From Candidatus Woesearchaeota archaeon (GTDB taxonomy: Archaea; Nanobdellota; Nanobdellia; Pacearchaeales; GW2011-AR1), in assembly GCA_964601175.1 (NCBI GenBank), contig CAZRMJ010000001.1:11280-75279 (forward strand): DNA of 64,000 nt. The letters run 5' to 3'. The notes under the pieces were generated by a model. That model did not search any database and was not told the origin of the DNA. It saw nothing but the letters and a program-made list of their open reading frames with translations. The translations under genes were made by a program, and so were the position numbers. Below, piece after piece: positions 1-38,008 of this stretch (position 1 is the stretch's first letter; each line of letters starts with the position of its first letter).

Positions 1-593
1 GCAGATAATGCTTCAGTTGGTATACTTCTAACTTGTTTAAGTTTGTTCATTGCTAAAGGAGAGCATGATTGAAATCCTTGTGCCATTCTAAAATTCGGGT
101 TTCTCGGAATTATTAGAAGTGAATTAAGTTCCGCTTGTATCCTTTTAGTTAAAGTATCTAATTCTTCTTTTGTTTTAGATCTACAGTTAAAATATAAACT
201 TACATTGAACAACTTGTCTCTTCCTTTTTGAAGATTGGCTAATACTGATTTTGTATCTTTATATTTTATTTGTAGACTTGGGTTTAGTATATTCCTGTTC
301 TTGGCAGAATACAAATCGGCTCTCTGTTTTTGTAATTCTTTATTAAGAAAGATCATCATTGTCTCAATATCATAAGGTTCAATATAAATTGAGATATCAA
401 AATTACCCATTGTACTAATAATTTTATCTAAAAATCCAGTTTCTACATTTCTTGGATAACCGTGAGCATATATTGTTCTATTTAAAATGCTTTTATCATT
501 GTTTGATATTTTAATATGGTTCGGAGTATTTTCTATCTTATTTGGTAAGAAGTCAGTTAATTCTTTACTTGTGCTCTTTTTATTAAATTTCAC
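1..593 (-). CDS. VirB4/TraC/CedB-like conjugative-type ATPase, N-terminal part (gene runs off the left edge)
   Basis: Absent from the ORF track because there is no stop in the window. My minus-strand translation from GTG 593..591 (GGAGGGG at 603..597) is open to position 1: VKFNKKSTSKELTDFLPNKIENTPNHIKISNNDKSILNRTIYAHGYPRNVETGFLDKIISTMGNFDISIYIEPYD...LFNVSLYFNCRSKTKEELD. The GYPr-v--GfL and fDiS-yI-P-D blocks match the pre-ATPase region of VirB4-family proteins as I recall it. Walker motifs would lie off-window. Confidence 0.5.
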   Translation of the reverse strand, partial: MKFNKKSTSKELTDFLPNKIENTPNHIKISNNDKSILNRTIYAHGYPRNVETGFLDKIISTMGNFDISIYIEPYDIETMMIFLNKELQKQRADLYSAKNRNILNPSLQIKYKDTKSVLANLQKGRDKLFNVSLYFNCRSKTKEELDTLTKRIQAELNSLLIIPRNPNFRMAQGFQSCSPLAMNKLKQVRSIPTEALS

Positions 594-1347
594 TCACCCC
601 TCCATTTCTAGAAATAAAGAACCTCTTAAGAAATAGATCTAAGTCATTATCCTTCAACCTATTATTTTTTAGACCTATATTTGTAAGCTTATCTTGGCAT
701 ATTTTAAGTTGAATATTTAAATCGTTTTTTTCTGGAATGACTATATAAAATACTCTGTTCATGACTTCGCTTTCTTTAGTTAACGACTCCAAATGCTTTT
801 TATATCCTTCAAATAATATCTTAAACTTATTATTATCTCTTATTTTTGATTCAAAATCTCTAAAATATTCTTCTAAATTTAATTGTTCCGTGCTCATAAT
901 AATTTGTATTGTAAAATCAATACTATTGAGAAATTTCTGAAATGCTATTGCTATTGCTTGTTTAGACTCTTCTGGTTTAATTGAGAAATTTATTGGATTA
1001 ATCCTCAAAATAGCTATCTTTCTTTTATCTGTAGTTAAAATTAAGTCCTCTTTTATTTCTTTAATAGGTATAAATCTTATCAAACTATTATAATTTTCAA
1101 TTTTCTTTGATTTGTACCAGTATTTCCAATTTTTTATATGCTTATCAAGATCTAAGAAGATAAAACCTATTGCTAATCCACTAAACATTGTTATAAATGG
1201 TATTTTTATTGCAATATTTAGATTTGTTTTAAAAGCAATGAATATAACTATTGGTGCAAATATAAACAAATAGGCTAATTGTTTAAAATTAAGACCAAAC
1301 ATTATTTTTTCCTTGTACTCTAGCTGTTGAGGTATTTCGTAAGCCAT
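583..1347 (-). CDS. PrgI/VirB3-like membrane protein with a VirB4-N-terminal-like soluble domain
   Basis: 254-aa ORF with ATG start. MAYEIPQQLEYKEKIMFGLNFKQLAYLFIF plus a TM hairpin resembles the PrgI/VirB3 signature. The soluble part (AILRINPINFSIKPEESKQAIAIAFQKFLNSIDFTIQIIM) resembles the N-terminal domain of Gram-positive-type VirB4. It overlaps the next ORF by 11 nt. Confidence 0.5.
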   Translation of the reverse strand: MAYEIPQQLEYKEKIMFGLNFKQLAYLFIFAPIVIFIAFKTNLNIAIKIPFITMFSGLAIGFIFLDLDKHIKNWKYWYKSKKIENYNSLIRFIPIKEIKEDLILTTDKRKIAILRINPINFSIKPEESKQAIAIAFQKFLNSIDFTIQIIMSTEQLNLEEYFRDFESKIRDNNKFKILFEGYKKHLESLTKESEVMNRVFYIVIPEKNDLNIQLKICQDKLTNIGLKNNRLKDNDLDLFLKRFFISRNGGVSEI

Positions 1348-1349
1348 TG

Positions 1350-2150
1350 TTAACTCCTAAATTTGCTACGAACACTAAATGTAGCTCTAGTTATTGCAAA
1401 AAGCAGTAGAATTGCCATAAGGATATCTATTAAAAGAAAAGCTGAGATCAATAAAATGATCTGAAAGTTACTAAAGACTCCTACATCCATTAAAGAAGAG
1501 AATCCTATCAATAATACTGCATCAAAAAATGTAATGAATATAGAAACCCCTAGAATATTTAATATTAATGAACCAATATCTCTTAATTTTGGAATAAAAT
1601 AGAAGAAAATACCTATCGGGAAGAAGACTATACCAACAGCAACTATCGTATATCTTAAGGTTAGAACGAATATAGTTATTATTAGTACCAATAAATAACC
1701 TATTAGTAATGCAAGGGCTAATCCTAAACCAATTGTACTATTTACTTGTAAACTAAAAAAGTTACTATCTACTATGCTCAAAGTTGCGGAAGTCATTGTG
1801 GAAGCCAAGTCTAATACTAAGCGGTATAGAAAGAATGAAGACTGAACTAGAACAATCATTATTATTATATTTCTTAACCATTCCTTGGCAGAATCCCTTT
1901 TTTCAGAGTCATAACCAGATATTAGAAAACTTATTCCTGCACCAACAAGTAAAAGAGCATAAAATATTGATAGCATGTAGACTATTATTGCCCATAATCT
2001 AATGAAGATCTCTGTTTGGACTTCAGCAGATAATAAATTTAGAACCAATTGTAAGAATGGCTGGACTGGAGCATTAATCAGATCAAATAAGAAATTAAAG
2101 AAGACCTCTGGAAGACATGATCCTAGATTAACTAATCCACAGCTAGGCAT
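1350..2150 (-). CDS. Polytopic membrane protein, VirB6/TrbL/CedA-like (topology and context only)
   Basis: 266-aa ORF with ATG start. About 6-7 hydrophobic helices and no soluble domain. It sits between the pilin-like gene and the VirB3/4-like genes. Confidence 0.4.
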   Translation of the reverse strand: MPSCGLVNLGSCLPEVFFNFLFDLINAPVQPFLQLVLNLLSAEVQTEIFIRLWAIIVYMLSIFYALLLVGAGISFLISGYDSEKRDSAKEWLRNIIIMIVLVQSSFFLYRLVLDLASTMTSATLSIVDSNFFSLQVNSTIGLGLALALLIGYLLVLIITIFVLTLRYTIVAVGIVFFPIGIFFYFIPKLRDIGSLILNILGVSIFITFFDAVLLIGFSSLMDVGVFSNFQIILLISAFLLIDILMAILLLFAITRATFSVRSKFRS

Positions 2151-2536
2151 CTTCTCATGAATGAAGTCTTAGTGAGAAATGAAAACAAGATATAATTAAA
2201 CAAAATAAATAGAACAATCTTAGAAAATAGTATAAACCTACTTGTTTCAATATCTTTTATAGAGAACTTAAAGTTTGCCTGTGCTCTGGGATAATTTGGG
2301 TTATTGTATCTTGGAAATTCATATCCTTGATCCCATAATATGCATATTGCTTCTTGTCTCTCAGATCCCGATATTTGCGACCAAATATAATTACAGTCAT
2401 TCTTTTTACTTGATTCGGTAAAATTAGAACATTTCAGATTTGATGGGCATGCAGAAGCTATTTGCAACAGCAACAATTTAATAAAAATCCCTGTTGCAAG
2501 AGCTACTGCTATCCTTTTTATTAGCACTTTATTCAT
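2132..2536 (-). CDS. Secreted, C-terminally anchored Cys-containing protein of the transfer operon
   Basis: 134 aa with ATG start. N-terminal signal-like helix, 6 Cys in the mature part, C-terminal TM helix. It overlaps the next gene by 19 nt. Confidence 0.45.
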   Translation of the reverse strand: MNKVLIKRIAVALATGIFIKLLLLQIASACPSNLKCSNFTESSKKNDCNYIWSQISGSERQEAICILWDQGYEFPRYNNPNYPRAQANFKFSIKDIETSRFILFSKIVLFILFNYILFSFLTKTSFMRRCLAVD

Positions 2537-2537
2537 A

Positions 2538-2864
2538 TTAGATCATAAATTGCACAAACCATGGTGCCGCCCAGATTATTGCAAGACCTATAAATACGTA
2601 CATTATTGTATTCTTCGAACTTTCTCGCTTTCTAGGATCAGAACCGCTTGTAATATAACTAATTCCTGCCATTACAAGCATTATAACCGCAACAAATGTT
2701 GCCGCATATTTGATTAAGTTATATATTCTTAACACAGGTTCTAATATTGTATCAAATGTGCGCTTATCTTCTTCTGACAAGGTCTGATTAAATTGGGCGC
2801 TAACAAATTGCATTGCAAAGATATACGCAATAAGCAAGATGCTAACAATTTTTTGTACCTTCAT
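2538..2864 (-). CDS. VirB2/TrbC-type pilin-like protein (CedA1/TedC-like topology)
   Basis: 108 aa. Signal peptide MKVQKIVSILLIAYIFAMQFVSA|Q, then two hydrophobic helices joined by the loop SGSDPRKRESSK. GGAGGT (2876..2871) lies 6 nt upstream of the ATG. ATGA overlap with the upstream gene. Confidence 0.5.
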   Translation of the reverse strand: MKVQKIVSILLIAYIFAMQFVSAQFNQTLSEEDKRTFDTILEPVLRIYNLIKYAATFVAVIMLVMAGISYITSGSDPRKRESSKNTIMYVFIGLAIIWAAPWFVQFMI

Positions 2865-3082
2865 TCTTTCACCTCCTTTTCAGTTGATTGCTCTCTCCAC
2901 TCGTCAAGGTAGGCTCTTGCCTTTCGAAATCTAGCCAGTTTACCTCTGGCATCTTTCTTATACTTCCATTTAATGAATTTAAGACAATTTTTGCAAAAGT
3001 CTTTTTCTTCGTCAATTTCTGTTTCGCAGATGGTGCATGTTTTTTTCATGCATTTGCCGTGATCTAAAACCTTTATAGGCAA
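2861..3082 (-). CDS. Small zinc-ribbon protein (first gene of the transfer operon)
   Basis: 73 aa with CxxC...CxxC (CTICE...CKNC) and a basic C-terminus. The track start is TTG; an internal ATG (MKKTCTICE) is an alternative start. Confidence 0.5.
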   Translation of the reverse strand: MPIKVLDHGKCMKKTCTICETEIDEEKDFCKNCLKFIKWKYKKDARGKLARFRKARAYLDEWREQSTEKEVKE

Positions 3083-3154
3083 TCGGAGACCATTTAGTCG
3101 ACTAAATGGAAGACTAATTAGTAGACTAAATTGACGTCTATTTTGTCTCCGATT
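3081..3154. promoter_or_regulatory. Operator-like nested palindromes in the divergent promoter region
   Basis: Perfect 20-bp palindrome ccatttagtcgactaaatgg (3090-3109). GACTAA half-sites at 3100, 3112 and 3124 with exact 12-nt phasing, plus an inverted copy at 3094-3099. Outer 10-bp inverted repeat aatcggagac (3081-3090) / gtctccgatt (3145-3154). Confidence 0.55.
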
Positions 3155-3185
3155 TTTTATAAAATTAAAAGAGAAAGTTCTGCTT

Positions 3186-3839
3186 ATGGAACAAAATAAG
3201 TTGATCTTAGGAGAATGCTTAGAAGTAATGAAAAAGATGCCTTCAAACTCAATAGACCTAATTATTACAGATCCCCCTTATGGAGACAACATTGCTTATT
3301 ATGGAAATAAAACTATAGAAAATAATGAGAACCCCTTGTTAAATTGTATAGCTTTAGTTGAGTGTTACAGAGTTTTAAGAAAAAACAAAACAATGTATAA
3401 TTTTACAAATTGGAAACATTTGCCTTTTCTTACAGAATTTATATCCAAGTATACCAAGTTCAAAATAAGACATGTAATAGTTTGGAAAAAGCCTAACTTC
3501 GGAATGGGTTATGCTTTTAGACACCAATATGAATTAATTTTAGTTCTGGAAAAAGAGAATCCTAAATATTATCTTACTAATTTTTCAAATGTACAAGAAT
3601 CTAGCTTTATTTCTGGAAAATCAATACACCCACATCAGAAACCTTTGGATTTGATTACTAAAATGATTAAACACAGTTCTAAAGAAGGAGATTTGGTGTT
3701 TGATCCATTCTGTGGAAGTGGCTCTACTTGTGTCTCTGCTAAAATCAATAATAGAAATTGGTTAGGTATAGAACTTGATCCTAAATTTATTGAAATCGCT
3801 AAAAATAGACTCTTGGAGGTAGATAATGGAACAGCATGA
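3186..3839 (+). CDS. DNA methyltransferase, beta-class N6-adenine/N4-cytosine (DPPY)
   Basis: 217 aa. Motif IV IITDPPYG lies N-terminal and motif I FDPFCGSGST C-terminal. HPHQKPLDL block as in the N4/N6 MTase family. Confidence 0.9.
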   Translation: MEQNKLILGECLEVMKKMPSNSIDLIITDPPYGDNIAYYGNKTIENNENPLLNCIALVECYRVLRKNKTMYNFTNWKHLPFLTEFISKYTKFKIRHVIVWKKPNFGMGYAFRHQYELILVLEKENPKYYLTNFSNVQESSFISGKSIHPHQKPLDLITKMIKHSSKEGDLVFDPFCGSGSTCVSAKINNRNWLGIELDPKFIEIAKNRLLEVDNGTA

Positions 3840-3972
3840 TTTAGATAAGTCAAATCCCGAACATGTTATACTGATGCTTGAGGAAATTCTTAGAATATTG
3901 TCTCAGAAGAAAGAGAAATTATGTGTTGAGTGTAAGAAGATTTACCCTTCAGATAAGCTATTTAAACCTTGA
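3826..3972 (+). CDS. 48-aa micro-ORF with a CxxC motif
   Basis: My translation: MEQHDLDKSNPEHVILMLEEILRILSQKKEKLCVECKKIYPSDKLFKP. GGAGG at 3815-3819 lies 6 nt upstream of the ATG. It overlaps the MTase stop by 14 nt. Too short for the ORF track. Confidence 0.3.
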   Translation: MEQHDLDKSNPEHVILMLEEILRILSQKKEKLCVECKKIYPSDKLFKP

Positions 3973-3987
3973 ATAAATCGCTTTTTT

Positions 3988-4965
3988 ATGGAGTTAAATG
4001 ATGAAGTTAGAATAGTTTTTGACGCTAGTTTCAATAATGATTATGCTGGAAATTTAGGAGAAAATGATGTACTAACTAATTTGGAAACATTAAATAGGAT
4101 TCTAAAGAATACAAAACTAGAAAAAGTTGATTATCTTATAAAAATAGTAGAATGCCATTTTATTATGTGCCCTTATTTAGCTTTCGAGTTTTTTATTACT
4201 AATGACCTTATATCTAAAGGTATGCAAGAGTTACACAATTATTTAGAAAACCTTAGATTAAAGAATGATTCATTATATTATGATCATTATCATTATTGCT
4301 TGTTAAGATTACAATATCAATTAAGAAATAAGAAATTTAACTTACAACAATTAAATATGATTAGAAATGGTGTAATTAATTTGCCTGATAGGGCTAAGTC
4401 GGTTAGAGTAAGAGCTATTGGATACACTGATGAAGATATTAGATTAGATGTTGTAACCAAAACCGTTAAAGTAATAGATGATAAAAGACTTGAAATTGTT
4501 AAAGAAAAGTATTCTGGTGAGTTGTTGACCGATGATATAAAAAATCTTAGTGAAAAATTAAAACAAAGTGATTTAAGGGGAGATTTAGCAAATTCTGTTT
4601 TAAAGTTAAAATCCAACTTTTATGAAAAAACCGATGATTTTGATTTAACTGCTTCTGCTCAGCAAATAAGAAATGTTATGATGGATATGATAAAAGATAT
4701 TACTAAAAAAGTAAATAGCGACCAGGAATTAGTTATATCCAATTCTAGTAGAGAAGATGCTGAATACAGAGAATTTTTAGAGAAAAAAGGGATTATTAGT
4801 GATAAAGAAAAGAGACTATTAGATTCTTTCTATAGTTTTATTTCAGATGAGATAAATCATAAATCTCTTACAAAAAAAGAATATTATAGGATTTCACTAA
4901 ACATATTTTCACAAATAGGCTATCTTATAATTGAAGAATATGAGAATTATATTAAAAGTAAATGA
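3988..4965 (+). CDS. Uncharacterised 325-aa protein downstream of the MTase (candidate R-M/defence partner)
   Basis: Long ORF with ATG start and K/E/N-rich helical-looking sequence. I recognise no motif in it. The antisense 99-aa ORF inside it is a shadow. Confidence 0.55.
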   Translation: MELNDEVRIVFDASFNNDYAGNLGENDVLTNLETLNRILKNTKLEKVDYLIKIVECHFIMCPYLAFEFFITNDLISKGMQELHNYLENLRLKNDSLYYDHYHYCLLRLQYQLRNKKFNLQQLNMIRNGVINLPDRAKSVRVRAIGYTDEDIRLDVVTKTVKVIDDKRLEIVKEKYSGELLTDDIKNLSEKLKQSDLRGDLANSVLKLKSNFYEKTDDFDLTASAQQIRNVMMDMIKDITKKVNSDQELVISNSSREDAEYREFLEKKGIISDKEKRLLDSFYSFISDEINHKSLTKKEYYRISLNIFSQIGYLIIEEYENYIKSK

Positions 4966-5086
4966 TTCAATTTAGTGGTTCACATCATTGTGCCATGATG
5001 TACTGGAACCCGGACCGCACTCATGGCTCTTCAGTCCTTTTCGCGTGATGCTGAAAATTTATAATTATACCAAACCTAATAAATAA

Positions 5087-5340
5087 ATGAAAAAGAGACT
5101 TCTAATAATCCGAGGCCTGTTGTTATGAGTGCGGGGTTGTTTAACAACTTGGAAACTTTTGAGGGAAATCATAATCATGATTTGGACTTAAGGTCAATTG
5201 TAAAAGTAAAATCTGACGAAATTCCAGAAGGTGACGGGATTATTGGAAGTCCTCCTTGCCAAAGTTGGAGTTTAGCAGGAGCAATGAAAGGAATATCTGA
5301 TGATAGGGGAAAGCTATTTTATGAAAAGAACTACAACTGA
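5087..5340 (+). pseudogene. Decayed C5-cytosine DNA methyltransferase (Dcm-type) remnant
   Basis: The 71-aa ORF keeps only the motif IV region (GSPPCQSWSLAGAMKGISDDRGKLFYE). An upstream ATG at 5087 gives MKKRLLIIRGLLL* in another frame. Motif I and motifs VI-X are absent. Confidence 0.7.
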
Positions 5341-5402
5341 CTTAGAGTCATCTTACTTTTGAGTAAAAGCAACATTCTTAAGCCTTAATTCTATGTTAAA
5401 TT

Positions 5403-5732
5403 ATGAAAAATAAAAAGATTTGGATTTGGGCAATTATAGGGTTTATTTATGCATTCATACCAATGAGCGTTATGGCTTTTGGTAAGAGTTCTGGAGAGGT
5501 TGGACCTGGAATTATTCTAATCCTTCCACCATTTTGGCCAGTTGCATTTAGTTTTTTTGGAATAATAGGGGTATTTGCATTTTTTGCAAAATTTTCTACT
5601 ACTCTTCTTAATTTTGGCTCTTCTCCTTTAATGAATTACATTTTAATTATATTAACTTTAATTTTTTGGACCATTCTTGGAGGATTAATAGGATATATTT
5701 CTACTAGAAAAGAGAAAATTAAAAACAAATGA
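5403..5732 (+). CDS. Small membrane protein (3-4 TM)
   Basis: 109 aa, ATG start, hydrophobic throughout. Confidence 0.5.
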   Translation: MKNKKIWIWAIIGFIYAFIPMSVMAFGKSSGEVGPGIILILPPFWPVAFSFFGIIGVFAFFAKFSTTLLNFGSSPLMNYILIILTLIFWTILGGLIGYISTRKEKIKNK

Positions 5733-5864
5733 GTATTTTGGATAATATCCGCATTAGTAATTTTGGGCTTACTTATTTTAGGAAGCCATTACTTTTTTGG
5801 CCGGTAATCCAATATCATTCTATTCTACAATTGGTTGCGCATCGAATTAGACTAAAGTGTATCA

Positions 5865-5936
5865 TGCGCGGGCCGGGAATTGAACCCGGGCCACAACATT
5901 GGCAATGTCGTATACTAACCACTATACTACCCGCGC
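5865..5936 (-). tRNA. tRNA-Gly (GCC)
   Basis: Minus-strand read: GCGCGGG TA GTAT AGTGGTTA GTAT A CGACA TTGCCAA TGTTG TGGC CCGGG TTCAATT CCCGG CCCGCGC A. Full cloverleaf, 72 nt, no encoded CCA. Confidence 0.9.
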
Positions 5937-16760: not shown

Positions 16761-17959
16761 GGGTTACAGTTTTTGCATACAAAATTTCTTCCTGTTGAAT
16801 CAGGGATCATAAATCTTTTATTTTTGAATGCTTTACATTTGATACATACTTTTCCACATTGCTTGCATGTTTTTCTTTTCGTTATGCTACATAATTGCTT
16901 TAAGCATAAATTGCAAGATATTTCATTACAATCTTCACATCGTTCTCCACAATTTCTACAAACTAAGTGGCTACCATTACAGATTATTATTTCAGATAGA
17001 TTATTTTTACAAAGATCGCACAATGGAAATTCTATTTTATTTTTTAGAGGATCAAAGCTCATTGTTGCCAATCTAGTTACATCTTTTGATTTGAAGAACG
17101 CTTCTATGGAATAGATTGGATAATCTATTATTGTAGTAGTTATTAGTTTCGTATTTAGTCTTAGGGCATGCTTTTTTTGTTCATTTTCTATAAATAGCGC
17201 TTTTTCTGTACTAAATTGTTCTTTTTGTTTTTCTAGCTCTGCCGGATCTTTAGACCTATTTTGATTTTGGGAGTTATTTATTTTAGATATTTGCTCATCT
17301 ATTTCTTTTACTTGTTGTTCATAATATGCATTTATTCTAGATATCTCTTTAGACAGACTACTTTCAAGAGTATTTGCTATAATCGAGGTTTTATTGTTTA
17401 TAGAATCTTTAATGCTTTCTTTAGCTAAGAGGTAATAATCTCTTAATTCTGTCAATTCAATGTCTTTTTTGTTTAAATTACTTGTCGTAAACCTTTCTAG
17501 ATCTGGATTTATTATTACTCCTTCATCTACATATACTTCATTAATTAGCTTCTCTTCTTCGTTTAGATACTTGTATGTTGTTTGAAATGTAAATTTGAAT
17601 AAGAAATTATGCAATGCATTATTATTTGCTTTTACAAGTGAACAATTAATCAATTTTAGATTTTCTTTAATAAATGAGTCCATATGTAATTTATAGTTTA
17701 AAGAAAGTAAAACTGCTTCTCCTGAATTGTCTAAATAAGACCTCATCATTTTTAGCAAATAACTCTCAGAAGTTATTAGTTCGGTTCCTTGAGTGGAAAG
17801 ATTTTTGTCGAAAACTAATTTGTATGGTTCGTTTTTGCCATAAAATTTTTGAAATTTTTGAGGTACCCCAGTTATTTCTAAGGAATCTCCGGAATCTGAA
17901 ACATTTGCACCTAATTCTTTGAAGAATTTTATGCTAAATTCCTTAAGTTGGGTTTCCAT
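16757..17959 (-). CDS. Coiled-coil protein with C-terminal cluster of six CxxC motifs (triple zinc-ribbon), partner of the SNF2 helicase
   Basis: 400 aa. Its start overlaps the SNF2 stop by 17 nt. C-terminus: CDLC...CRNC..CEDC...CNLC...CKQC..CIKC...CKNC. Confidence 0.6.
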   Translation of the reverse strand: METQLKEFSIKFFKELGANVSDSGDSLEITGVPQKFQKFYGKNEPYKLVFDKNLSTQGTELITSESYLLKMMRSYLDNSGEAVLLSLNYKLHMDSFIKENLKLINCSLVKANNNALHNFLFKFTFQTTYKYLNEEEKLINEVYVDEGVIINPDLERFTTSNLNKKDIELTELRDYYLLAKESIKDSINNKTSIIANTLESSLSKEISRINAYYEQQVKEIDEQISKINNSQNQNRSKDPAELEKQKEQFSTEKALFIENEQKKHALRLNTKLITTTIIDYPIYSIEAFFKSKDVTRLATMSFDPLKNKIEFPLCDLCKNNLSEIIICNGSHLVCRNCGERCEDCNEISCNLCLKQLCSITKRKTCKQCGKVCIKCKAFKNKRFMIPDSTGRNFVCKNCNP

Positions 17960-19730
17960 CTAAGGCCTCCGAAGTGGCTTTTTTGGCATCATTATAATCA
18001 TCTATTCCTTTCTGTATCATTTGACTTATTTCAGTTACATCTTTGGCAAATAGATCTAGGTTATTTTTTGAGTCTATGAATGAATCCATAAGCATCTCTT
18101 CTATTTTTGCAAGTCCTAGTTTGCCAGGGCTATCAAGGCCCAAGTTAAACAATATTGTAGGTAATTCTCCTATTACTAGGCCAATACAGCACATTTTGTT
18201 TATTATCAGGTCAACTACATGCTCTTCCATTGTATCTTTTGTTGCTAAGCTGTAAATGTACATATCTTTAGTTTGGCCTATTCTATCTAATCTACCTATT
18301 CTTTGTTCAACAGACATAGGATTCCAAGGCAGATCATAGTTTATCAAAACATTACAAAATTGAAAGTTAAGACCTTCAGCTCCAGTTTCAGTACTTATCA
18401 TTATTTGGGCTTCTTTTTTGAACTCTTCAATTTTGCGAGTTTTTTCTTCTCTAGTTAAGCCTCCTGTAAACTCAACTATTTTAAGGTTATAAGGCTCTAG
18501 CTTTTCTATTATATATTTTAGAGTAGTAGGATGTTTGGTATAAAGCAGGATCTTTGAATTTTTATCGTTTTTTAGAACTTTATCTATTATTTCTATTAGT
18601 TTTTCTATTTTAGAGTCTTTTGTTATTTTTTTGTATGCATCTATTATCTCTTGTGCAATTTGTTTTGTTTCTGGATGATACTTCTCGCTTTCAGTTATTT
18701 TAGATAAGGACTCTATAGCAGATCTTGAAGAACTTGTTACTTTTGGAAGGATGGCATAGATTATTAGTTTTCCTCTTAACTCATCTCCGTTTGCAGCAAA
18801 ATATTTTGTTTTTAGCAAGTCACATATTGAATCATATATTCTTTTTTCTTCAGATGTTAGATTTACTACTTCTATTTTAGGGATTCTTTTTTTATAGGCT
18901 ATTCCTGTTTCTTCTCTTCTTCTTCTAAGCATTACCTCTTGTAGTCTTCTCCTCAATTCTAATGGATTTAATGGTTTTCTTTTATTTCCCCTGAAAAGGA
19001 ATTTTTGTCTAAATTCTTGTATTGTTCCTAGATGGCCTCTTTTTAACAAGTGAAGTAGATTGTATAATTCTAAAAGGTCGTTTTGAAATGGAGTTGCAGT
19101 TAATAGTAGAAATCTCTTTTTTTGCATCCTATCTACAAATCTCCATCTTGTAGTATTTCTTTGTTTTAATTTATGGGCTTCATCTACTATTAGTAGGTCC
19201 CATGGAATATTATGCGCTTTTTGATGCCTAAATTTTCCAAGTTCTTTATCAAATATTTTTACTTTATCTATTGAGGCTATAACTAAATCAGATTTATCCC
19301 AATCTTCTTCTGATTCTATTATGTGGAAATTCAGATTGAATTTTTCGTTTAGTTCTGCGACCCATTGATCTACTAATGAAGGGGGAGTTAATACAAGAAT
19401 TTTTGATGCAAAACCTCTTACAAGACATTCTTTTATTACCATTCCAGTGGTTATTGTTTTTCCCAATCCAACTTCATCAGCCAATAGGGCTGATCCATTC
19501 ATTTCTCTCAATATATGGAGTGCACCATCTGTTTGATATTTTAATTTATGAGTTAAGTTATCTTTTATTAAATCATAAGATACTAAGCCGTTCAATTCAG
19601 TATTTTTTTCAAGAGTTAATGCGTCTATCTTAAGTTTTGCTGTATCTAATGATCCGAATTTCTTTTGTTCTACTTTTTCAAGGACTTCTAAGTCATCATC
19701 AGAAAACGATTCGTCTATTATTATTGCCAT
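17943..19730 (-). CDS. SNF2/Rad54-family helicase (core only)
   Basis: ADEVGLGKT (I), LIVDEAHKLK (II), LLLTATPFQNDLLELYNLLHLL (III), TETGAEGLNFQ (V), WNPMSVEQRIGRLDRIGQ (VI). I take the ATG at 19730; the track extends to GTG 19736. Confidence 0.9.
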   Translation of the reverse strand: MAIIIDESFSDDDLEVLEKVEQKKFGSLDTAKLKIDALTLEKNTELNGLVSYDLIKDNLTHKLKYQTDGALHILREMNGSALLADEVGLGKTITTGMVIKECLVRGFASKILVLTPPSLVDQWVAELNEKFNLNFHIIESEEDWDKSDLVIASIDKVKIFDKELGKFRHQKAHNIPWDLLIVDEAHKLKQRNTTRWRFVDRMQKKRFLLLTATPFQNDLLELYNLLHLLKRGHLGTIQEFRQKFLFRGNKRKPLNPLELRRRLQEVMLRRRREETGIAYKKRIPKIEVVNLTSEEKRIYDSICDLLKTKYFAANGDELRGKLIIYAILPKVTSSSRSAIESLSKITESEKYHPETKQIAQEIIDAYKKITKDSKIEKLIEIIDKVLKNDKNSKILLYTKHPTTLKYIIEKLEPYNLKIVEFTGGLTREEKTRKIEEFKKEAQIMISTETGAEGLNFQFCNVLINYDLPWNPMSVEQRIGRLDRIGQTKDMYIYSLATKDTMEEHVVDLIINKMCCIGLVIGELPTILFNLGLDSPGKLGLAKIEEMLMDSFIDSKNNLDLFAKDVTEISQMIQKGIDDYNDAKKATSEALDGNPT

Positions 19731-19774
19731 ACACACCCTATTTTGAAAGAGTATTGAACTAACGGTTTTTAAGT

Positions 19775-37806: not shown

Positions 37807-37844
37807 ACTTGTTCGTAATCGTACGTTCGAATCCTTAAAAGTAA

Positions 37845-37927
37845 TGCGGGAGCTAGGATTCGAACCTAGGTAAGCACTAAGCATCACGGCCTTAACGTGA
37901 CCCATTTGACCGCTCTGGCACCCCCGC
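37845..37927 (-). tRNA. tRNA-Leu (anticodon reads AAG in the standard 5-bp stem/7-nt loop fold)
   Basis: Minus-strand read: GCGGGGG TG CCAGAGCGGTCAAATGGG TCACG TTAAGGC CGTGA + long variable arm + CTAGG TTCGAAT CCTAG CTCCCGC A. 83 nt. Confidence 0.85.
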
Positions 37928-38008
37928 ACGTATCTGTCAAATAATAACAGCTTTTAAGGCTTACTAAATTCAAAACACTTTTATAACATCTATCATACAA
38001 AACCTAGC

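Follow-up and report, generated by a model that had tools for sequence, protein, structure and literature searches.

A minimal type IV secretion-like gene cluster in DPANN archaea: a putative DNA-transfer apparatus of probable mobile-element origin

The systems most similar to the gene cluster described here are type IV secretion systems (T4SSs) of bacteria and DNA-import systems of archaea. Patescibacteria, or candidate phyla radiation (CPR) bacteria, carry a chromosomal T4SS made up of a VirB4 of mating-pair formation class FATA (MPF-FATA) ancestry, PrgI, VirB6, a pilin of the T4SS_pilin family (PF18895) and TrsD, a free-standing protein that is homologous to the VirB4 N-terminus and abundant in these bacteria (PMC12102498). 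The relaxase is usually absent from this system, the genes are located near oriC, and no VirB3-VirB4 fusions are reported in CPR (PMC12102498). The Ced and Ted systems of Thermoproteota possess a VirB2-like pilin, a VirB6-like protein and a VirB4-superfamily ATPase, again without a relaxase, and relaxase-free cutting and loading of DNA for transfer in archaea is an acknowledged open question (PMC9905601). Ced and Ted have been described only from Sulfolobales and Thermoproteales (PMC12102498), and the primary paper on them does not mention DPANN lineages (PMC9905601). In Nanohaloarchaeota, SPEARE-type giant proteins with a VirB4/TraG-like ATPase domain are predicted to form a cell-contact system; the ATPase domain lies inside one giant adhesin-like protein, and the description includes no genes for a pilin, PrgI or a VirB6-like protein (PMC10266531). 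Here we report on a gene cluster at the left end (positions 1–3082, minus strand) of a 64,000-nucleotide stretch of Candidatus Woesearchaeota DNA (contig CAZRMJ010000001.1), which we refer to as the window.

We put the probability at about 0.55 that this cluster encodes a minimal T4SS, or conjugation-like, apparatus for DNA transfer that is derived from a mobile element. Sequence comparison identifies the cluster as a real and well conserved unit of MPF-FATA ancestry that recurs across Woesearchaeota and Pacearchaeota of the DPANN archaea. Three of its features are unusual. VirB3-VirB4, usually a fused protein, is split here; the motor carries a nuclease-fold domain; and a hairpin resembling that of the pilin is found in the VirB6-like protein.

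The open reading frame (ORF) table and a translation of positions 1–593 show six packed, co-directional ORFs on the minus strand, with all junctions as an earlier reading made without database searches (hereafter the sequence-only reading) had given them (Table 1). That reading had proposed a T4SS- or conjugation-like operon in a small-genome archaeon, and this proposal is borne out by profile matches for VirB2, VirB3/PrgI and VirB4 together with a probable VirB6 analogue. The archaeal setting was also correctly recognized. The window is AT-rich (roughly 30% GC) and encodes a thermosome subunit (8643–10259) and archaeal-type Ser- and Thr-tRNA ligases, and the homologues carry the names Nanoarchaeota, Woesearchaeota or Pacearchaeota.

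The last ORF of the operon exits the window, and extending the contig leftwards, as the sequence-only reading had suggested, gave the complete ATPase. A search for exact protein matches turned up five independent assemblies that carry the same genes. The longest of them, public contig L001, is 99.9% identical to window positions 1–5893 and encodes an ATPase of 775 residues (L001 5301–7628), whose motor and C-terminal domain fall outside the window. The full protein matches the Pfam families P-loop_TraG (E 1.6e-27, 96.7 bits), DUF87/HerA and AAA_10, and possesses a Walker A motif (ASSGSGKS) and a Walker B motif (LLVIDESW); the truncated ORF, named a VirB4 ATPase from its first blocks, thus proves to continue into a P-loop motor. 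Beyond the ATPase, L001 encodes a 290-residue membrane protein (7853–8725), followed by convergent genes for large beta-helix surface proteins. We considered the 290-residue protein as a further part of the system and rejected it, as it is present in only two loci. Pfam and NCBIfam profile scans of L001 and of the scanned window ORFs found no relaxase, coupling protein or integrase, so that the absence of all three, first noted for the part of the operon in view, extends to the longer contig.

Upstream of the ATPase gene, the 254-residue protein aligns to positions 3–276 of the 894-position NCBIfam model VirB4_plasma (Mollicutes Mbov_0397; E 1.7e-17), while the in-window piece of the ATPase aligns to positions 291–474 of the same model (E 1e-15) and also matches CD1110 VirB4 (E 6.8e-14). 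Because the two VirB4_plasma alignments run on from one another, the ORFs are consecutive pieces of a single VirB3-VirB4-type protein. Residues 5–78 of the 254-residue protein narrowly pass the cutoff of PrgI (PF12666; 28.3 bits, cutoff 27), in agreement with the PrgI/VirB3 signature recognized in the sequence-only reading. The protein is not VirB3 alone, however, since it also holds the TraC-like, TrsD-like N-terminal domain of VirB4, for which a precomputed match to the TraC-like family PF26593 exists. As a separate N-terminal piece it parallels the TrsD of Patescibacteria (PMC12102498).

Database pipelines already name the ATPase VirB4 or TraC, and its bit scores lie under the cutoff of every named NCBIfam VirB4 equivalog. 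It falls just short of CD1110 VirB4 (308–322 bits, cutoff 325) and far short of Mbov_0397 (VirB4_plasma; 256–306 bits, cutoff 590), F-type TraC (160 bits, cutoff 567), VirB4_CagE (105 bits, cutoff 643) and CedD (38–40 bits, cutoff 600). Because the CD1110 score is just below its cutoff and the scores for CedD and the others are far below theirs, we place the ATPase, on sequence, in a clade of its own that is related to the MPF-FATA class of monoderms and not to Ced/Ted. The Ced/Ted label that the sequence-only reading had attached to the operon is therefore not retained, membership in those systems being rejected on the ATPase model scores. Among 72,556 plasmids, the best matches were CD1110-family ATPases of Firmicutes and Actinobacteria, at 24–32% identity.

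The cluster's likeness to MPF-FATA systems extends beyond the affinity of its VirB4 for CD1110 and VirB4_plasma. Both operate across a single-membrane envelope, and the fusion of an N-terminal membrane hairpin to VirB4 is also seen in Mbov_0397 of Mollicutes integrative and conjugative elements. The closest annotated gene order is that of the Spiroplasma plasmid pSPh245, on which a Mbov_0395 pilin-like gene, a Mbov_0396 membrane protein gene, the Mbov_0397 ATPase gene, a small ORF and a coupling protein gene follow one another; the archaeal cluster shares the order pilin, membrane protein and VirB3/4 ATPase. The coupling protein that follows the ATPase on the plasmid is missing here. The archaeal cluster further differs from the Mollicutes module in its host, in the absence of a detected relaxase and in a pilin that is clearly of the VirB2/TrbC type; in profile comparison with Mbov_0395 this pilin gave only E 2.5e-3 at probability 12. 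The archaeal ATPase also carries an extra C-terminal nuclease-fold domain that lies outside every plasmid VirB4 match.

The division of VirB3-VirB4 into two genes was followed in more than 1000 homologues of the ATPase. The best 120 are at least 56% identical to it, some of them on contigs of up to 885 kb; among these, most are 980–1050 residues long with PrgI, TraC-like and P-loop regions in one chain, and only the nearest relatives (72–94% identity) are about 750–800 residues long. Fused homologues begin with MAYEIPQQLEYKEKI, as does the 254-residue ORF, and the break sits in a variable linker. In 80 retrieved loci (see below), VirB3-VirB4 is fused (about 990 residues) in 56, split after the PrgI hairpin in 7, split after the N-domain as in the window in 6, and cut by a contig end in 11. 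Every locus of the split clade has a GGAGG-type ribosome-binding site 5–8 nucleotides before the ATPase start, which argues for an evolved gene fission with translational coupling rather than a recent frameshift. The split is moreover identical in the five independent assemblies. A frameshifted pseudogene, considered as an explanation for the 254-residue and 775-residue pair, was rejected on these three grounds: the split is clade-wide, the ribosome-binding site is conserved and the five assemblies agree.

Residues ~612–766 of the ATPase extend past the end of all VirB4 models and are strongly conserved, with E658, H662, P688, D689, E702, E704, G706 and K719 invariant in 33 sequences. Correspondingly, the listed plasmid matches end by about residue 850 of a 997-residue fused homologue, most of them by residue 810. 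An AlphaFold2 model of this domain, built on a 94%-identical homologue (pLDDT 91.9, pTM 0.87), shows an alpha-beta-beta-beta-alpha-beta core with a small alpha/beta subdomain in front, D689 lying ahead of strand 2 and E702 and E704 in strand 3. When the model was compared with the PDB using Foldseek, the best matches were mostly PD-(D/E)xK enzymes, led by Cdn1 (E 2.6e-3, probability 0.99); NucS/EndoMS, Can2, R.BspD6I, TnsA, Hjc, Mus81 and tRNA-splicing endonuclease were among the others. The best sequence match to a solved structure was a VRR-NUC-type nuclease (E 0.81), with the PD...EVE of the archaeal protein aligned to PD...EVK. From the model we regard the PD-(D/E)xK nuclease fold of the domain as established. 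Catalytic activity is not assured, because none of the fold matches reaches E 1e-3 and the third motif reads ExE rather than ExK; an invariant lysine lies 15 residues past the ExE, in the next helix.

A profile search for this domain over 1.84 billion representative sequences returned 687 proteins that contain it. Many of these are short stand-alone proteins in which the domain is preceded either by a transmembrane helix and a coiled coil or by a Zn ribbon. At one locus (L090 3989–9626), an integrase gene is followed by a gene for a 305-residue membrane-anchored stand-alone nuclease-like domain and then by one for a surface protein of more than 1045 residues with a transmembrane helix and a HerA/VirB4-like P-loop domain at its end. 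The integrase is 62–69% identical to members of its family found next to T4SS clusters, and the arrangement links the nuclease-like domain a second time, in a different layout, to an ATPase of the HerA/VirB4 class. This giant surface protein with its P-loop resembles the SPEARE proteins of Nanohaloarchaeota and adjoins the stand-alone nuclease-like domain.

The assignment of the 108-residue protein as a VirB2/TrbC pilin holds in both topology and profile scores. It scores above the gathering thresholds of Pfam T4SS_pilin (PF18895; E 4.6e-14, 52.7 bits, cutoff 26.6) and TrbC/VirB2 (PF04956; E 8.4e-9, 36 bits, cutoff 27.9), and matches the NCBIfam Mbov_0395 pilin-like model at E 9.3e-6, under that model's cutoff. 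Its sequence reads as a signal peptide ending in FVSA|Q, followed by two hydrophobic helices with the loop SGSDPRKRESSK between them; an alignment of 35 orthologues has 12 invariant columns and a conserved loop, SGSDPxKRE. Solved pilus structures searched by sequence with the pilin profiles gave no significant match, and matches of these profiles to RNase kappa hairpins among solved structures were set aside as spurious.

The 266-residue protein itself matches no Pfam or NCBIfam family. All of its 93 homologues are about 270 residues long, and those with a name come from Nanoarchaeota or Pacearchaeota metagenome-assembled genomes, except for one labelled Staskawiczbacteria. An AlphaFold2 model (pLDDT 81.7) is an all-helical bundle, and its best three fold matches in the PDB are to TrwI/VirB6 of the R388 T4SS, at E 0.055–0.09 and a template-modeling (TM) score of 0.38; solved structures searched by sequence with profiles of this family gave no match. 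A close relative's counterpart weakly matches TrbL_3 (PF19590), and the position of the gene beside VirB4 fits VirB6/TrbL. Of the VirB6/TrbL likeness suggested in the sequence-only reading, the polytopic character and the place beside VirB4 therefore stand, and the likeness as such leans on the weak TrbL_3 match and sub-threshold folds. We consider the protein a candidate VirB6/TrbL-like channel or pilus platform. Residues 54–107 form a helix-loop-helix homologous to the pilin (BLASTP, 40% identity over 43 residues, E 1e-8); the two families align in hhalign with a probability of 96.2 (E 2e-9), and 15 of 35 members of the 266-residue family match T4SS_pilin.

Between the pilin and VirB6-like genes lies the gene for a 134-residue protein that matches no Pfam or NCBIfam family. 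The sequence-only reading took it for a secreted Cys-containing protein. The cysteines and the N-terminal hydrophobic signal or anchor are as described, but the protein is not simply secreted, because its Cys-containing ectodomain is followed by a C-terminal transmembrane anchor. In other loci a protein of about 450 residues takes its place. In hhalign the first 60 columns of the two align with a probability of 97.7 (E 2e-12), and the C-terminal anchor is common to both; by this comparison they are one family with a variable ectodomain, whose gene invariably lies between those for the pilin and the VirB6-like protein. Such variability is the pattern expected of a contact or adhesion protein, and an adhesin or pilus-associated role is our guess for this candidate.

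The first gene of the operon encodes a protein with a CxxC...CxxC arrangement and weak matches to zinc-ribbon Pfam families (E 0.005–0.05). Clustering placed its family in 28 related loci, every time directly upstream of the pilin gene. Its identity and place thus agree with the sequence-only reading, whereas the start does not: rather than the TTG at 3082, the ATG at 3049 is the likely start, because the resulting 62 residues agree with the homologues and with the length called for this gene in L086, a close relative.

When one genome per GTDB species was scanned, a relative of the ATPase proved to be encoded in at least 165 places, from which the 80 loci were retrieved. Nearly all are labelled Woesearchaeota, Pacearchaeota or Nanoarchaeota, and several genomes have two copies. 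What had been seen as one locus is therefore a cluster widespread in Nanoarchaeota-type genomes, often beside a tRNA gene and an integrase gene. Neighbors were counted after ORF calling and clustering in the 54 loci for which 4.5 kb or more of upstream sequence was available, with methylases, ribbon-helix-helix (RHH) proteins and integrases identified by Pfam. The VirB6-like gene is present in 53 of the 54 and the pilin gene in 49, followed by the surface-protein family (134 or ~450 residues; 42 loci), a divergent orphan DNA methylase (36 loci; 29 of the N6_N4 family and 7 of the MT-A70 family), the Zn ribbon (23), an RHH protein with a weak NikA-like match (E 3.9e-4; 23) and a tyrosine integrase (20).

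At least nine loci share the order tRNA-Asp(GTC), integrase, optional cargo, methylase, RHH protein and transfer genes. Because the transfer genes directly follow a tRNA-Asp and a tyrosine integrase in many species, together with an orphan methylase and an RHH protein, the module is probably of mobile-element origin. Recurrent downstream genes encode type I restriction subunits, reverse transcriptase, C5 methylase, Fic, deaminase and nucleases, a variable cargo. Paralogues within one genome are 55–62% identical to each other and 81–88% identical to copies in other species. In one locus (L057), 15 nucleotides of the tRNA 3' end are repeated 14.7 kb downstream in the manner of an attR, for which this repeat is a candidate; a second 15-nucleotide match, in L028, falls inside the pilin gene and was set aside as an att site. 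Taken together the loci look like a family of integrated mobile elements, with boundaries seen in one case only.

Two side observations concern these loci. A conserved protein of about 92 residues (family c8), with only a weak match to DUF7354, is encoded in 21 loci within L020–L084, 1.4–10 kb downstream of the ATPase gene and in 20 of them on the same strand, often head-to-head with an Lrp/AsnC-type regulator. In L057 its gene (19350–19631) ends 150 nucleotides before the candidate attR. We rejected c8 as a marker of the right-hand element end, as variable cargo goes on past it. Separately, the cluster is filed under Gammaproteobacteria, Bacteroides, Bdellovibrionales, 'bacterium' and Staskawiczbacteria metagenome-assembled genomes in L012, L017, L021, L046 and protein P0130, labels that are probably binning errors. 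Thirty-seven 'Patescibacteria' VirB4 proteins have been found to group with archaeal homologues (PMC12102498), and misfiled archaeal contigs might account for some of them.

Table 1. Genes and other features of the transfer cluster and its surroundings (positions in the window).
Feature	Positions	Strand	Remarks
Zn-ribbon protein, 73 aa from TTG	2861–3082	-	first gene of the operon
VirB2/TrbC-type pilin precursor, 108 aa	2538–2864	-	4-nt ATGA overlap with Zn-ribbon gene
Cys-containing surface protein, 134 aa	2132–2536	-	1-nt gap after pilin gene
Polytopic VirB6/TrbL-like protein (candidate), 266 aa	1350–2150	-	19-nt overlap with 134-aa gene
PrgI/VirB3-like hairpin and VirB4 N-domain, 254 aa	583–1347	-	2-nt gap after 266-aa gene
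VirB4-type ATPase, first 197 codons	1–593	-	11-nt overlap with 254-aa gene; open frame exits the window
Divergent promoter region (putative)	3050–3185	.	between transfer operon and methylase gene; read from sequence
Orphan N6/N4 DNA methyltransferase	3186–3839	+	N6_N4_Mtase, E 1.2e-36; divergently transcribed
tRNA-Gly(GCC)	5865–5936	-	3' end faces the cluster

In the window, the transfer operon and the methylase gene diverge from a nearly palindromic region. A TATA-like box lies about 26 nucleotides before each start codon, each box adjoins one arm of an inverted repeat (ATCGGAGAC / GTCTCCGAT), and five GACTAAWT-type motifs fall within 57 bp (3092–3148), including the palindrome ATTTAGTCGACTAAAT at 3092–3107. 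This layout is kept in L006, L011 and L086, and the region is likely an operator for a shared regulator. On the far side of the methylase gene, the tRNA-Gly gene forms a border with housekeeping genes to its right and the methylase and transfer region to its left. The border is the same in L086, whose ATPase is 94% identical and which shares with the window the order thermosome, hydrolase, GGDEF protein, tRNA-Val, DUF1003 protein, tRNA-Gly and then the methylase gene. The tRNA-Gly gene is a possible old integration site, and in this genome the module may be an old, fixed insertion. Mean nucleotide identity to L086 is 95% to the right of the tRNA border and 87–88% to the left of it; we did not count this jump as evidence of transfer because the identity profile is mosaic (70–96%).

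About 2 kb of the window between the methylase and tRNA-Gly genes (3972–5864) are missing from L086. They hold genes for a 325-residue protein without a family and a 109-residue membrane protein as well as a 71-residue C5 DNA methylase fragment (5125–5340), and the stretch appears to be a small indel hotspot beside tRNA-Gly. Between tRNA positions 39 and 40, the tRNA-Gly gene of L086 (6214–6341) has some 53 additional bases that the window copy lacks; they resemble an archaeal tRNA intron that one strain carries and the other does not. Large parallel-beta-helix surface proteins flank the cluster on both sides (window 11077–14181 and L001 12032–15311). The beta-helix gene downstream of the ATPase and its neighbors for 517-, 131- and 455-residue proteins recur in two or more further loci of this clade: all four are found in L011, where the upstream tRNA differs (tRNA-Asp), and the 517-residue protein and beta-helix genes are found in L022. 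These genes may travel with the transfer genes.

Elsewhere in the window, a 193-residue GGDEF (diguanylate-cyclase-type) protein is encoded at 6988–7569 (E 1.5e-40, with a weaker match to the Cas10 palm); GGDEF proteins are uncommon in archaea. The top-scoring models for an SNF2-family helicase (17943–19736) are DISARM DrmD and DpdE, with scores well short of the cutoffs, and the helicase is flanked by 400- and 456-residue proteins without a family (neighbors at 14195–17959); this region may be a defence locus. ARAGORN calls a tRNA-Ala(GGC) at 10965–11035 and a tRNA-Leu(AAG) at 37844–37928, both under the Rfam tRNA gathering score.

Several points weigh against reading the cluster as a DNA-transfer apparatus derived from a mobile element. 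The functional claim is drawn from homology, models and context. No relaxase, coupling protein, VirB8-like protein or cell-wall hydrolase was found among the conserved neighbors with Pfam and NCBIfam profiles, which divergent ones could escape, and canonical conjugation is accordingly not encoded. The VirB6 assignment is weak, its fold matches being sub-threshold, and profile comparison of this family with the Spiroplasma Mbov_0396 membrane protein gave no similarity; the ExE motif and modest fold E-values of the nuclease-like domain count in the same direction. As to mobility, the window contains no integrase, in the 9.4 kb available beyond it the tRNA-Gly 3' end is not repeated as an att site, the cluster occupies the same site in L086, which fits vertical inheritance, and among 11 tRNA-Asp loci only the one candidate attR was seen at the tRNA 3' end. 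Finally, for the T4SS of Patescibacteria the proposed role is host interaction and not conjugation (PMC12102498). The main rival is built on this last point: the cluster would be a domesticated machine that attaches an episymbiont to its host and draws in nucleic acids or other molecules, with the nuclease domain cutting imported DNA for nucleotide salvage or recombination. Its parts are those of the Patescibacteria T4SS, again without a relaxase, and the requirement for those genes in the epibiotic growth of one cultured Saccharibacterium (PMC12102498) gives this rival a precedent; many small genomes carry the cluster, two related ones at a fixed site, and a variable surface protein fits host-specific contact. 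However, the cluster frequently lies in a tRNA, integrase, methylase and RHH context, its cargo varies and its copies within one genome diverge, a picture closer to that of a mobile element, and no genes for host-targeted effectors are conserved beside it. The two systems also differ in that VirB3-VirB4 fusion is the rule among the DPANN loci (56 of 80) and unreported in CPR (PMC12102498), in the DPANN neighborhood of integrase, tRNA and methylase genes versus the position near oriC in Patescibacteria (PMC12102498), and in the nuclease domain on VirB4, of which a text search of PMC12102498 for 'nuclease' returned no mention for Patescibacteria. We regard a host-interaction role as possible, if on the unlikely side.

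A further explanation is import of chromosomal DNA between cells of a species for repair by recombination, as in Ced and Ted. The minimal logic is the same, in that an archaeal VirB2-like pilin, VirB6-like protein and VirB4-superfamily ATPase work without a relaxase (PMC9905601), and the DNA-cutting step is an open question for both. The DPANN ATPase is nevertheless distant from its Ced counterpart, scoring near the cutoff on CD1110 and at a small fraction of it on CedD, and is distinguished by a PrgI hairpin and TraC-like N-domain; the gene order, like the PrgI fusion, follows MPF-FATA, and the lineage is outside those from which Ced and Ted are known. The direction of transfer is not readable from sequence, and Ced/Ted-type import seems to us improbable. 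Even less credit goes to the view that the cluster is a decaying remnant of a conjugative element, with VirB4 frameshifted, the integrase lost and the machinery no longer working. The VirB3-VirB4 frame is indeed interrupted, with an 11-nucleotide overlap and a +1 frame change, the window lacks an integrase and a C5-methylase fragment lies nearby. However, the interruption is shared by a whole clade (72–94% ATPase identity), and the ATPase begins at a separate start codon behind a conserved ribosome-binding site; no ORF is disrupted, and both the Walker motifs and the residues of the nuclease motif have been retained. Splits at another point, between PrgI alone and VirB4, also exist, as in many working T4SSs. 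Decay is thus a very unlikely account.

If the cluster is a DNA-transfer apparatus, its parts could work together as follows. The pilin would be exported, freed of its signal peptide and polymerized into a pilus or short conduit, while the 266-residue VirB6-like protein, with its pilin-like hairpin, would form the membrane platform and channel. The variable 134-residue surface protein might, more speculatively, mediate contact. The VirB3-VirB4 ATPase, whose homology is clear and which in this genome would be made as two translationally coupled chains, is predicted to power assembly and translocation, with the PrgI hairpin as its anchor. The substrate would most likely be DNA, and the C-terminal PD-(D/E)xK-fold domain may process it in place of a relaxase and possibly of the coupling protein. 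A bolder and more doubtful extension of this scheme holds that these loci are DPANN integrative elements that conjugate independently of a relaxase, VirB3-VirB4 both cutting the DNA and feeding it into a conduit formed by the pilin-derived VirB6-like protein.

Our literature searches, which had partial coverage and are no proof of absence, found no paper on this cluster in Woesearchaeota, Pacearchaeota or Nanoarchaeota, and a search of the viral contigs of IMG/VR found no relatives. A VirB4 motor with a built-in nuclease-fold domain, present in hundreds of genomes, is a concrete and testable candidate for relaxase-free DNA cutting. Few T4SS-like gene sets are as small as this cluster of four to five proteins, a size that recommends it for structural work, and the pilin-like hairpin of the VirB6-like protein hints at a relation between the platform and the pilus subunit. 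Like the T4SS of Patescibacteria, which it resembles in its list of parts, the cluster is found in ultra-small, host-dependent organisms. As the archaeal counterpart of that system (PMC12102498), it suggests that ultra-small symbionts of both great groups may depend on minimal machines that are related to each other.

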